From an uncultured Bacteroidales bacterium (GTDB taxonomy: Bacteria; Bacteroidota; Bacteroidia; Bacteroidales; UBA10428), in assembly GCA_964392505.1 (NCBI GenBank), contig CAYMQP010000003.1, positions 1 to 49,171 of the forward strand: 49,171 nucleotides of DNA, written 5' to 3'. Position 1 is the stretch's first letter. Each line of letters opens with the position of its first letter. The position numbers and the translations under genes were made by a program. Under the pieces are notes generated by a model. That model was not told the DNA's origin. It worked only from the letters and a program-made list of their open reading frames with translations, and did no database searches. Of this stretch, positions 12,359 through 14,329 are shown one piece after another.

Positions 12359-14329
12359 ATGAGTTCTCGGAAATTCTCGAAATCTAATAAAAAGACTTCA
12401 ACAACATTTCCATCAATATTCGGTAAAAAGCAATCTGACCAGATATTTACGCCGGAACCTGCTAATGATGCCCATGATGCATCAAACAGTCCATTAAACC
12501 ACAACTTTGGCCATATTAAGGTAGAGAATTCATCATTCAAAAAATCCTGTTCCCTTTCCTTGTCCGGCCCAGCTCATTGTCCCTTTGGTGGGGTATGTCA
12601 TACCTGTCCGGAGGCCATACAGACGAAACTGAAAATTAATACTCCGGGCGATAAATATGAAAAAGAGGCCGACCGGGTGGCAGAGACCATAATGAGTACC
12701 CCTGTTATACAAAGAAAAGAATGTACCACCTGCGGGGAAGACGAGGATGAATTGCTGCAAACGAAATCTATCTCACATCAAATTACGCCCTTAATTCAAA
12801 GACAGGTGGAAGAAGAGGATGATGAAACTGATATGGATTTTTTCCCTGAAATTGATGACGAAGATGAAGAAATCATGATGAAAACCGTACAACCCGGATC
12901 AAAGGATATCGGTCCAGGTATAACCGGAAAAATTAATAATACCCGTGGCAAAGGAGCGCGATTGCCTGCCGATACATTGAATTTCATGGAAAACAGATTT
13001 GGAACCAGTTTTAAAGATGTAAGGATTCATGCGGATAATAAATCGTCTGAACTGAATGATAGCATAAAATCAAAAGCTTTTACAATAGATCGTGATATAT
13101 ATTTTAACAGAAATTATTATCAACCTAATGCACCAAAAGGAAGAAAGTTACTTGCACATGAGTTAACTCATGTTTTACAGCAAAGCGGAGTAAACTACTC
13201 ACACCGGACTGGGGCAAAGATTGGCCAATTACGTACAATGCAATCTAATCAACCTGTTGTCATTCAAAGGGCAGTGCAGGGGACAGGCGTTAGGTCAGCG
13301 GGTCATGTCTTGGACAAAATAAATAAAGTTCTCAATAAACAGAAGGCACTCAATAAAAAAAGAGGCCCGGTAAAAATGGGGAAACTAGCCCCTGATTTAG
13401 ATTCTGTTAGTAAGAAAAAAGGTCGAAAGCCTGGCATGTTGTTAGGTGGTATTTTTGGGGGTCTTTTAGGTGGTGGTTTGGGTGCTGGCCTCGGGGCTCT
13501 TCTTGGTGGTGCTTTGAGTGCCGGCCTCGGTGCTCTTTTTGGTGGTGTTCTGGGAATTGTTGGCGGTATCTTTCTTGGTCGTTATTTATTACCAAAAATA
13601 ATTCGTTCGAGAGCACGTTCATTATATATATCCAAGCGACAACTGAGATCTTTATTAGCCCTGGGGGAAGCATTCCATCCTGGTAAGAAAGAGGACGCTC
13701 CAACCAATGCGTTTGTGTATACCTGCAAGGGGGGATGGATTGATATGGGGCACTTCTTCTTCACGGCGGCCGCTGCCTATGCTCATAAAAATCTTACATG
13801 GATAGAAAGGCCATTTATACCAACTGCAATGAAATTAGCTAAACAAACTGAAGAGGGCCAGCAGCGTGAACGCGAGCTGTTCAAAAAGCGATTTACAGAT
13901 CCTCGGTTATTGAAAAAATTCGGGGCTGCACCATTTAGAATGCCCCCTATAACGACTAAAGAACAGAAAGAAAAAATAAAAAAACAAATGGCCGAACTCA
14001 CTAAAGATCAAAAAGGCGAGCGTGGCACTGTCGGGAGTGCATACACGATCGAGGACATGCCAAGCAACAAGTTTGGGGCTGAGTTTGGGAAAAAACTTTC
14101 GCCTGACGACAACATCCACACAAAGATGTATAACTTCTTTAAAGAAAAGGGTGCGGTTGAACCGAAGGGCGATGTACTTAAAGCGATGATGGAAGAAACG
14201 CTATGGACTGGAAAAAAAGCGAAACTGCCACGACAGCATGAACCGCATATGAAGGGGGGAACAGAACCAGTACTACTTAAGAATGCATGCCCCCTCTGCC
14301 CTCACGCGCCAGTATGTAAGTCACCTTAA
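12359..14329 (+). CDS. DUF4157 eCIS cargo/toxin candidate 2, with a glycine-zipper membrane segment and an unassigned C-terminal domain
   Basis: LPADTLNFMENRFGTSFKDVRIHADNKSSELNDSIKSKAFTIDRDIYFNRNYY...LLAHELTHVLQQ (HELTH at 13157-13171). Followed by GMLLGGIFGGLLGGGLGAGLGALLGGALSAGLGALFGGVLGIVGGIFLG, then GGWIDMGHFFFTAAAAY...AYTIEDMPSNKFGAEFG. Confidence 0.8.
   Translation: MSSRKFSKSNKKTSTTFPSIFGKKQSDQIFTPEPANDAHDASNSPLNHNFGHIKVENSSFKKSCSLSLSGPAHCPFGGVCHTCPEAIQTKLKINTPGDKYEKEADRVAETIMSTPVIQRKECTTCGEDEDELLQTKSISHQITPLIQRQVEEEDDETDMDFFPEIDDEDEEIMMKTVQPGSKDIGPGITGKINNTRGKGARLPADTLNFMENRFGTSFKDVRIHADNKSSELNDSIKSKAFTIDRDIYFNRNYYQPNAPKGRKLLAHELTHVLQQSGVNYSHRTGAKIGQLRTMQSNQPVVIQRAVQGTGVRSAGHVLDKINKVLNKQKALNKKRGPVKMGKLAPDLDSVSKKKGRKPGMLLGGIFGGLLGGGLGAGLGALLGGALSAGLGALFGGVLGIVGGIFLGRYLLPKIIRSRARSLYISKRQLRSLLALGEAFHPGKKEDAPTNAFVYTCKGGWIDMGHFFFTAAAAYAHKNLTWIERPFIPTAMKLAKQTEEGQQRERELFKKRFTDPRLLKKFGAAPFRMPPITTKEQKEKIKKQMAELTKDQKGERGTVGSAYTIEDMPSNKFGAEFGKKLSPDDNIHTKMYNFFKEKGAVEPKGDVLKAMMEETLWTGKKAKLPRQHEPHMKGGTEPVLLKNACPLCPHAPVCKSP
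12596..12637 (+). repeat. Second copy of the 42-nt conserved block (see 9903-9944)
   Basis: 39/42 identity with 9903-9944, clearly higher than the identity of the surrounding paralogous sequence. Confidence 0.8.

Follow-up and report, generated by a model that had tools for sequence, protein, structure and literature searches.

The gene at positions 12359-14329 (+ strand) of the 49,171-nucleotide stretch of contig CAYMQP010000003.1 (assembly GCA_964392505.1), referred to in its entirety as the window, encodes a 656-residue protein whose C-terminal domain is, judging from profile comparison and conserved motifs, a CapCone-1 member of the Lipocone superfamily. We consider it reasonably likely that the protein is a modular effector cargo of an AlgoCIS-like contractile injection system (CIS), in which a CapCone-1 toxin is combined with a glycine-zipper membrane anchor. 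By analogy with AlgoCIS, the polar N-terminal ~200 residues, which are common to the product of a neighboring cargo gene, would act as a system-specific loading sequence. The zincin-like eCIS_core/DUF4157 domain (eCIS, extracellular CIS) would mark the protein as CIS cargo, and the C-terminal 230 residues would form a soluble toxin tip with a predicted active site composed of His465, Glu498 and Asp566. After injection, the zipper would become embedded in the target membrane, probably in the form of a helical hairpin or small oligomer, and tether the otherwise soluble enzyme to the bilayer surface where its lipid substrate is located, with the basic flanks and the enzyme remaining on the entry side of the membrane.

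The domain identities, locus context, motif conservation, zipper statistics and restriction of the hydrophobic segment to eCIS-type relatives were computed here. The open reading frame (ORF) encodes, in order, an N-terminal domain (NTD), eCIS_core, a linker, the glycine zipper and CapCone-1, and the exact 656-residue protein forms a singleton cluster at 90% identity among ~15 billion proteins, so that a look-up brought up no allelic variants. The original prediction, made from the letters of the window, placed the start of its feature at 13190, the first base after eCIS_core, and thus covered the C-terminal 380 residues (58%) rather than the whole gene. The three strings that it quoted all lie in frame in this ORF, including CKGGWIDMGHFFFTAAAAY at aa 456-474 (nt 13724-13780; beginning CKGGWIDMGH) and GSAYTIEDMPSNKFGAEFG at aa 559-577 (nt 14033-14089; beginning GSAYTIEDMPSN). 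The features of the gene are as follows.

12359-14329, + strand: whole gene, from the ORF list; 656-aa protein, putative CIS cargo; stop codon 14327-14329
12359-12961, + strand: N-terminal region, aa 1-201; polar, acidic and without a signal peptide; putative system-specific loading sequence
12578-12637, + strand: Cys motif CPFGGVCHTCPEAIQTKLKI in the NTD, aa 74-93
12962-13189, + strand: eCIS_core/DUF4157 domain, aa 202-277 (Pfam PF13699, E = 5.6e-27, 94.2 bits against a cut-off of 22)
13157-13171, + strand: HELTH zincin motif (HExxH) in eCIS_core, aa 267-271, from the translated sequence
13262-13333, + strand: conserved linker motif IQRAVQGTGVRSAGHVLDKINKVL, aa 302-325, from comparison of the linkers of eCIS_core-CapCone fusions
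13433-13579, + strand: glycine zipper, aa 359-407; no charges, 21 Gly and 13 GxxxG; probably an anchor or hairpin that inserts into the membrane
13457-13547, + strand: 36-nt tandem repeat within the zipper (Tandem Repeats Finder; 2.5 copies, 85% matches, score 133)
13580-13651, + strand: basic segment RYLLPKIIRSRARSLYISKRQLRS, aa 408-431; 8 K/R and no D/E; its end overlaps CapCone helix 1
13628-14326, + strand: CapCone-1 Lipocone domain, aa 424-656 (profile search, hhalign, AlphaFold2); predicted lipid-head-group phosphoesterase toxin
13718-13756, + strand: motif 1 YTCKGGWIDMGHF, aa 454-466; beta-hairpin clasp into helix H2, with Gly459 (-6), Asp462 (-3) and predicted catalytic His465
13850-13852, + strand: Glu498, the glutamate that H3 contributes to the predicted active site; E78 in domain numbering and invariant, in helix 66-89 of the model
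14036-14077, + strand: motif 2 SAYTIEDMPSNKFG, aa 560-573; S-x-x-[S/T]-x-x-Asp566 at the start of H4, then a small residue plus Asn570, and Gly573

Assignment of the C-terminal domain to CapCone-1

A Pfam scan of the whole protein retrieved eCIS_core only, and direct searches of Pfam, NCBIfam and the PDB sequences with aa 408-656 were without result (best PDB match flavodoxin, E = 1.6). The same region has seven homologues in a word-indexed database of 5.8 billion proteins; three of these contain eCIS_core, and in two the domain lies directly after the end of a canonical Rhs core, where polymorphic toxins have their tip. An exhaustive profile search with the C-terminal domain extended the family to 868 cluster representatives at E <= 1e-3 (318 at E <= 1e-10). 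The domain almost always closes the protein, being followed by a median of 1 residue, and it often does so in proteins of 1,100-2,200 residues. A Pfam scan of 71 full-length members identified eCIS_core in 25, RHS_repeat in 12, YD-shell in 4, DUF6443 in 3, SpvB in 1 and DUF4056 in 7, and the names returned by a second, annotated search are mostly 'RHS repeat-associated core domain-containing protein', together with filamentous-haemagglutinin, PT-VENN and Hint contexts. Family members in representative genomes belong chiefly to Bacteroidota, and also to myxobacteria, Moraxella, Actinobacillus and others. Because its relatives are the terminal domains of Rhs, filamentous-haemagglutinin, PT-VENN and SpvB proteins, the domain is, on this sequence evidence, a toxin tip and not the housekeeping fold that would have spoken against the original prediction.

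The Lipocone analysis of Burroughs, Nicastro and Aravind (eLife 2025, PMC12419801) describes three CapCone families in a ClaspCone-CapCone-TelC clade and provides explicit signatures for them. To place a domain that had previously gone unassigned, we aligned its profile (hhalign) to that of the divergent CapCone-1 sequences of the T6SS (type VI secretion system) type from supplement file 2, which were the only CapCone-1 sequences used for this comparison. The domain matched CapCone-1 with 98.6% probability and E = 1.2e-15, with both motifs aligned, compared with 54% and E = 1.3e-4 for CapCone-2, where the His, Glu and Asp positions still aligned. The published signatures were present as follows.

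Gly six residues upstream of the H2 His: present (G459...H465)
xD before the H2 His: present (I461-D462)
S/GxxSxx before the H4 Asp: present, with Thr for Ser at -3 (S560-A-Y-T563-I-E-D566)
Aromatic residue before the Ser at -3: present (Y562)
Small residue and Asn at +3/+4 of the Asp: present (S569-N570)
Beta-hairpin clasp into H2: present in the AlphaFold2 model (strands 32-35 and 39-42, domain numbering)

The region from aa ~424 to 656 is assigned to CapCone-1 because of the profile match, the published signatures and a better fit than to either CapCone-2 or DUF4056. CapCone-2 is ruled out by the weaker hhalign match and by its different motif (GxDKxGHF...SYxDxxAN). DUF4056 proper (PF13265), which corresponds to CapCone-DUF4056, is ruled out by a score of 14.3 bits (E = 0.026) against a threshold of 23.6 and by its genomic context, which is tied to outer-membrane beta-barrels and not to toxin delivery (PMC12419801 supplement). 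Both motifs are nevertheless common to DUF4056 and the family described here: the target aligns to positions 66-91 of the DUF4056 profile at motif 1, other members align to positions 169-218 at motif 2, and ~10% of members carry a DUF4056 match.

Nine residues are invariant across 38 diverse members (Y454, G459, D462, H465, F466, E498, E565, D566 and G573), and G459, D462 and H465, as well as E565, D566 and G573, are likewise invariant in the 71-sequence set. His465, Glu498 and Asp566 match the ancestral H2/H3/H4 triad inferred in PMC12419801. The motifs that had been picked out as looking catalytic thus prove to be the invariant core of the family, located at the His and Asp positions of the Lipocone active site. 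The Thr at -3 in motif 2 is typical of the eCIS sub-branch, with the Rhs branch having SAYSYEDLPSD.

An AlphaFold2 model of the domain, built from the alignment of the 38 members, has a pLDDT of 86.5 and a pTM of 0.85. Its helices (domain numbering) span residues 2-18, 43-59 (containing the His), 66-89 (containing the Glu) and 146-159 (starting at the Asp), so that in the predicted structure the triad residues sit in three successive long helices. The model also has a helical insert between the 66-89 and 146-159 helices, a C-terminal extension after the latter and the 32-35/39-42 hairpin. Profile comparison and Foldseek, of the kind suggested earlier for this region, gave a profile match to CapCone-1 and no structural neighbor, as described below.

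The target resembles the published CapCone-1 family in being a C-terminal toxin tip of low hydrophobicity with a clasp (PMC12419801), and the supplementary CapCone-1 sequences of that study include Rhs-type ones with the same motifs as the target. The target sub-branch has the pattern FVYTC-x-GGWIDMGHFF ... TIED[LM]PS[DN] ... LPRQH ... LC, and the strings FVYTC, GGWIDMGHFF and TIEDLPSD were not found in the portion of the supplementary sequences of PMC12419801 that was searched. Unlike published CapCone-1 proteins, the target is extended at its C-terminus by 72 residues that finish in a Cys cluster, carries its glycine zipper immediately upstream of the domain, and has neither a BamE-like immunity gene nor a PsbP/Mog1 partner beside it. 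The main text of PMC12419801 describes delivery of Lipocone toxins by type IV, VI, VII and IX secretion systems (T4SS, T6SS, T7SS, T9SS) and MuF and makes no mention of eCIS, Photorhabdus virulence cassettes (PVC), DUF4157 or a glycine zipper. Its table and context files do list an 'MPTase-DUF4157' delivery context, with DUF4157 N-terminal to CapCone-1 in 21 loci (RHS in 94) and to CapCone-2 in 11. The fusion of DUF4157 to CapCone-1 was therefore already catalogued in 2025. What is new, as far as the sequences indicate, is a zipper-bearing, eCIS sub-branch form of a computationally defined toxin family.

Several additional observations were made on the C-terminal parts of these proteins. The Cys cluster that closes the extension (ACPLCPHAPVCKSP) is located at 14288-14326 and is preceded in the eCIS sub-branch by LPRQH and P-x-LL-x-SA motifs. 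Both are missing from the Rhs-type branch, which has APN[YFW]...LP...N-x-[ST]T-x-P instead. In seven eCIS_core-CapCone proteins (P0011, P0037, P0042, P0055, P0060, P0066 and P0069) and in the protein encoded at 9128-11743 of locus L001, 290-415 residues with no Pfam match follow CapCone. The Lipocone supplement reports lipocalin C-terminal to CapCone-2 and lists DUF4157 among the N-terminal partners of CapCone-2 (PMC12419801).

The glycine zipper and its possible role at the membrane

The zipper (GMLLGG...GIFLG), a stretch of 49-50 residues without a charge, includes 21 Gly and 13 Leu. Its one polar residue in 49 is a Ser, and every other residue that is not Gly is L, I, F, V, A or M. It has 13 GxxxG pairs where composition-preserving shuffles give 8.06 (P = 0.0045), enrichment is confined to this spacing, and an unbroken chain of 13 small-xxx-small positions, unique in the six frames of the window, runs through it. 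The array described in the original prediction is thus real, but ends at 13579 rather than at about 13590. Basic residues flank it on both sides, with 7 K/R in the 20 residues before and 8 K/R and no acidic residue in the 24 after. The 36-nt repeat corresponds to a duplicated 12-residue unit (3 x GxxxG), by whose tandem duplication part of the zipper arose. The Kyte-Doolittle mean over 19 residues reaches 2.05. On the Hessa scale, the best 19-mer scores about +0.7 kcal/mol, indicating borderline insertion, compared with ~0 for the relative P0016 and +4.7 to +8 for relatives lacking such a segment.

We asked how this segment is distributed in the family, defining an eCIS-type relative as a member with an upstream HExxH (29 such members, compared with 145 others). 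A hydrophobic segment in the linker just before CapCone is present in 5 of the 29 and in none of the 145 (Fisher P = 9.5e-5, a value that is optimistic if, as is probable, the five are kin to each other). Three of the relatives, P0013, P0016 and P0020, have a hydrophobic segment of 45-50 residues at the position of the zipper, after the linker motif and before CapCone helix 1, and in two of the three it is split by a Pro-rich turn, as expected of a two-helix hairpin. The target zipper is the most Gly-rich version of this segment. Because solubility is predicted for the CapCone clade even though its members have membrane lipids as substrates (PMC12419801), and because the segment is confined to the eCIS-delivered branch, we favor a role as a membrane anchor, which the zipper probably has. 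The membrane-inserting or membrane-perforating character originally suggested for it would fit an array that is uncharged, hydrophobic and phased at i+4; its internal position, the lack of a Gly-zipper family match and the borderline Hessa score do not fit that description as well.

A more elaborate scheme, which we offer tentatively and hold to be less likely than not, is that the eCIS sub-branch gained a self-inserting, basic-flanked hairpin that docks the enzyme on the cytoplasmic face of the target membrane, where it would destroy lipid-linked precursors of the cell wall or of glycans before they are flipped; a variant would have the hairpin form a pore in addition to the lipid II hydrolase. 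CapCone-1 toxins exported by Rhs and T6SS machinery, by contrast, would act from the periplasmic side. If either version were true, no earlier membrane-targeting module would have been described in a CIS cargo, and the hairpin could be moved as a tag onto engineered CIS payloads.

It is rather unlikely that the zipper is instead the main weapon, forming an oligomeric ion-conducting pore that depolarizes the cell, as do TelE, EsxX, TspA and Tse4, with CapCone serving an additive or targeting function. Like those toxins, the target has an extended (G/A/S)xxxG array, with significant i+4 periodicity and no charges, and a presumed delivery by a secretion or injection machine; zippers of the EsxX type depolarize from either membrane face, the cytoplasmic one included, and the recent expansion of the zipper by tandem duplication suggests selection on its length. 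However, the zipper of EsxX lies close to the C terminus, within a domain that is itself the toxin, whereas the target zipper is an internal 49-residue segment between the cargo marker and a conserved 230-residue enzyme domain with an intact active site. The segments of P0016 and P0020 are less Gly-rich and look like ordinary two-helix hairpins with a Pro turn, which argues for anchoring. Most eCIS-type relatives lack the segment altogether, the zipper has no significant match to a Gly-zipper family, and no dedicated zipper-binding immunity proteins are encoded near the target.

One resemblance that bears on pore formation is to the Gly-rich C-terminus of the phage P22 protein gp7, to which the zipper with its flanks (13334-13660) has a sub-threshold Pfam match (E = 0.0065, 16.7 bits against 28). 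This resemblance is probably driven by composition. It is still an intriguing parallel: a tail tube is the route of the P22 DNA-ejection protein gp7, a presumed membrane-inserting protein, and would be that of the zipper protein as well.

We regard as improbable a third interpretation, in which the Gly-rich stretch is a flexible, soluble, low-complexity linker that arose by repeat slippage and has no membrane role. It is in part a 36-nt tandem repeat, most relatives have a non-hydrophobic linker, the Hessa score is slightly positive and DUF4157 is commonly separated from toxin domains by very long linkers (PMC8213781). Soluble Gly linkers are normally rich in Gly, Ser, Thr and Pro, however, as in P0083 and P0115, whereas the zipper is hydrophobic (Kyte-Doolittle 2.05) with one Ser, has Gly residues phased at i+4 (P = 0.0045) and is bounded by basic clusters, and hydrophobic segments occur at the same position in relatives.

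The probable cargo role and the injection system locus

DUF4157 is the eCIS core domain, found N-terminal to many eCIS-associated toxins, seven of which have been validated (Geller et al. 2021, PMC8213781). The target has an eCIS_core domain above threshold with its HExxH motif, lies within a CIS gene cluster and has an NTD like that of a co-encoded cargo. In AlgoCIS, from Algoriphagus machipongonensis, Cgo1 and Cgo2 combine a disordered NTD and a centrally placed DUF4157 domain with differing C-terminal domains, fill the lumen of the tube and are lost upon contraction (PMC8894135). According to the PROCIS preprint, the NTD is required for AlgoCIS loading and DUF4157 is dispensable, and cargo NTDs are alike within one CIS but not between systems. 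Because the AlgoCIS-type layout is reproduced here, including the likeness of its NTD to that of the neighbor, the target is, by analogy, very probably a cargo of the local CIS. The earlier description of the gene as a second cargo is consistent with the 94-bit eCIS_core match, the location in the CIS operon and 45% identity of the first 275 aa to the upstream cargo-like gene.

The parallels extend to the architecture of a polar or disordered NTD, DUF4157 and a variable C-terminal effector; to several such genes side by side in a CIS operon near an AAA+ ATPase, with NTDs similar within the system; and to a Bacteroidota host (probable for the target). There are three differences: the effector module is a predicted metalloprotease in Cgo1 and CapCone-1 in the target; a membrane segment is not mentioned in the passages on Cgo1 and Cgo2, whereas the target has the zipper; and Cgo1 and Cgo2 have been seen in particles, whereas the target is a predicted cargo. 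In a Rubrivivax metagenome-assembled genome (MAG) and in a proteobacterial MAG (loci L001 and L003), eCIS_core-CapCone genes likewise lie directly after the AAA/Pvc16 genes of CIS loci.

The window is a complete contig, and the CIS operon spans ~1100-31200 of it on the + strand. Its first part encodes, in order, a LuxR/PAS regulator, sheath, gp19-type tube, T4-baseplate-like protein, Pvc16_N cap and AAA+ ATPase. The ATPase gene is followed by those for three consecutive eCIS_core (DUF4157) proteins, of which the target is the middle one, and then by those for a CIS_tube protein, a spike with Phage_base_V, DUF4280 (PAAR-like) and gp25; Baseplate_J-like, P2-I-like and DUF6519 fibre-like proteins are also encoded. 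The genes closest to the target are as follows.

7416-9416, + strand: AAA+ ATPase (Afp15/Alg15-like; Pfam AAA, E = 5.7e-25), proposed cargo unfoldase/loader
9669-12152, + strand: first eCIS_core cargo-like protein, 827 aa, with NTD and core as in the target and another C-terminal module
14481-15506, + strand: third eCIS_core protein, 341 aa, with a short NTD (Pfam; pairwise comparison)

The target is 45% identical to the upstream 9669-12152 protein over aa 6-275, with no similarity beyond, and has only eCIS_core in common with the 14481-15506 protein. The latter has ~50 residues ahead of the core, without the long NTD of the other two, and a C-terminal part of ~200 residues. The upstream protein has no Pfam match other than eCIS_core; its C-terminal part is GC-rich (0.46-0.54 compared with ~0.37) and contains another HExxH-like site at aa ~484-491 (LLEHELQH) together with a tail rich in Gly, GLGVGGLGKSAGLAITAG....

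A two-helix zipper joined to a lipid-II-cleaving domain might alternatively act on the producing cell, as a lysis factor of the holin or pinholin type that frees the particles or as a tether of particle or cargo to the producer membrane; we consider either role quite improbable. Pinholins use glycine-zipper transmembrane (TM) helices, no immunity gene is adjacent to the target and TM segments anchor some CISs in the producer, such as Cis13 in Anabaena. Release of eCIS particles requires lysis, to which eCIS toxins have been suggested to contribute (PMC8213781). The known CIS anchoring elements are, however, baseplate or fibre proteins rather than DUF4157 proteins; the NTD and eCIS_core form the architecture of a tube-lumen cargo, with the NTD common to the neighboring cargo gene; and CapCone-1 is overwhelmingly the tip of Rhs-type exported toxins and is paired elsewhere with immunity proteins.

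Scans for promoters and terminators across these genes returned sites at shuffle expectation, and there is therefore no sign of separate transcription. A PAS + LuxR/GerE regulator gene at 1099-1779 (+ strand) lies directly upstream of the sheath gene, in agreement with reports that link GerE-type regulators to eCIS operons.

The NTD of the target and that of the 9669-12152 protein both contain a Cys/His motif, CP[FY]GG[VA]CHTCPEAIQTKLKI, located in the target at 12578-12637, and a CxxC follows it by ~40 residues in the target (aa 122-125). Together these could be a small zinc knuckle within a region expected to be disordered. The linker motif, IQR-x-V...V-x-S...VL-x-RI, is common to many eCIS_core-CapCone fusions (P0002, P0009, P0010, P0012, P0013, P0016 and P0020 were compared), and its '[VI]QR' element is seen again in the target NTD (PVIQRKE, LIQRQVEEE). 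Speculatively, the HExxH domain may recognize or process the protein at the linker motif.

The GC content of the target is 0.33 in eCIS_core, 0.43 in the linker, 0.53 in the zipper (largely owing to Gly codons) and 0.45 in the C-terminal domain, compared with ~0.36-0.38 in adjacent CIS genes, in keeping with the modest and patchy rise described earlier. Evidence for a foreign origin of this particular module is weak, as had been stated; yet the whole CIS block is missing from the syntenic site of the nearest relative. For the glycerate kinase encoded at 40600-41766, the best matches with a name come from Bacteroidales/Bacteroidota MAGs, at 57-62% identity, a hint at the phylum level; tblastn of this kinase and of the sheath against plasmids was uninformative (~50% identity). 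In the relative GCA_964592225.1 (76% identical), the gene order HAD, 485-aa protein, 403-aa protein, amylase, DUF4154, glycerate kinase and PepX is kept. Beyond PepX, this genome (CAZQCO010000035.1; L065) encodes DUF7793, GH3 and a SusC-like receptor, with no CIS locus at the syntenic site, and the window has at the same site Zn_peptidase_2, tRNA-Met, glycosyltransferases/methyltransferases and the CIS operon. From these comparisons, the host is probably a Bacteroidota-like diderm. The tRNA-Met gene (37696-37769, - strand) adjoins the block containing the CIS and glycosyltransferase genes, which looks, from this arrangement, like an accessory island. The window has two tandem YfiR/HmsC-like (DUF4154) genes at 41902-42411 and 42795-43310 (+ strand), and GCA_964592225.1 has one.

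Predicted chemistry and significance

The characterized members of the superfamily act on the phosphate-linked head groups of lipids. TelC, secreted by the T7SS of Streptococcus intermedius, is a lipid II phosphatase that cuts between undecaprenol and diphosphate, and PTDSS1/2 swap phospholipid head groups (PMC12419801). VanZ/Llp1 and YfiM are Ca2+-dependent lipid-linked-oligosaccharide pyrophosphatases, and mutation of the equivalent His, Glu or Asp of VanZ and YfiM abolishes activity (bioRxiv 10.64898/2026.09.16.752124). By the published analysis, TelC, VanZ/Llp1, YfiM and the target are members of one superfamily, with the same expected reaction type; the His, Glu and Asp that are essential in VanZ and YfiM have invariant equivalents in the target. 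By homology, the target domain is predicted to hydrolyze membrane lipids at a phosphate-linked head group or to transfer that group. Lipid II and other undecaprenyl-(pyro)phosphate-linked intermediates are the most likely substrates, with phospholipids as the alternative. The target differs from VanZ and YfiM, which are integral membrane housekeeping enzymes, in being a predicted soluble, injected domain, and no sequence or Foldseek similarity between TelC and the target was detected in the searches.

That the domain is a Cys-His peptidase or amidase of the papain/NlpC-P60 type, acting through the Cys of CKGG and the His of MGH, is virtually untenable: although the Cys lies nine residues ahead of the His and many injected toxins are such amidases, Cys456, once proposed as part of a functional motif, is not conserved (C, G, K or A even in the closest eight homologues) and falls outside the invariant columns, no peptidase was matched in Pfam, NCBIfam or PDB, and the predicted fold is all-helical with one hairpin.

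Several observations weigh against the interpretation of the target as an anchored CapCone-1 cargo. Foldseek searches of PDB and of BFVD (viral) gave no match at E < 1 for a first (pTM 0.66) or second (pTM 0.85) model, with best E values of 1.3 and 2.4 for the confident pTM 0.85 model, and did not retrieve TelC; a profile search of PDB sequences gave only Hermes transposase (E ~ 0.5, across a 60-residue gap), which we took as chance. The link to characterized Lipocones therefore rests on the published profile analysis and motif congruence. The domain also scores below the Pfam threshold for DUF4056 (14.3 compared with 23.6 bits). We found no experimental work on any CapCone or DUF4056 protein in the literature, so that the substrate and even the toxicity are predictions. 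With respect to the zipper, its Hessa score is borderline, it has no significant match to Gly-zipper_Omp, Rick_17kDa_Anti or related Pfam families (E = 0.38 and 0.53), the five relatives bearing such a segment are probably kin, and the segment is missing in 24 of the 29 eCIS-type relatives and is therefore not required for the toxin. The zipper, a hydrophobic segment, would also have to be kept soluble while being loaded into the tube. Finally, no immunity gene lies beside the target, unlike the Rhs/T6SS CapCone-1 toxins, although the lack of an immunity gene next to the toxin is common for eCIS toxins (PMC8213781).

These results turn an unplaced pair of motifs into a testable enzyme hypothesis, with three named predicted catalytic residues, a reaction class and a delivery machine. 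They leave the general picture of eCIS toxins unchanged, the DUF4157 and CapCone-1 fusion having been tabulated in 2025. CapCone toxins are widespread, with 868 representatives in Rhs, T6SS and eCIS contexts, and their hosts include Chryseobacterium, Flavobacterium psychrophilum, Moraxella catarrhalis and Neisseria lactamica. A zipper-bearing eCIS member provides a compact construct with which to ask which lipid is attacked and from which side of the membrane. For payload design of the PROCIS type, a natural cargo in which a hydrophobic membrane-targeting segment would pass through the tube is a useful example. The target would be of value chiefly for testing, in compact form, both the biochemistry of CapCone and CIS cargo directed to membranes.

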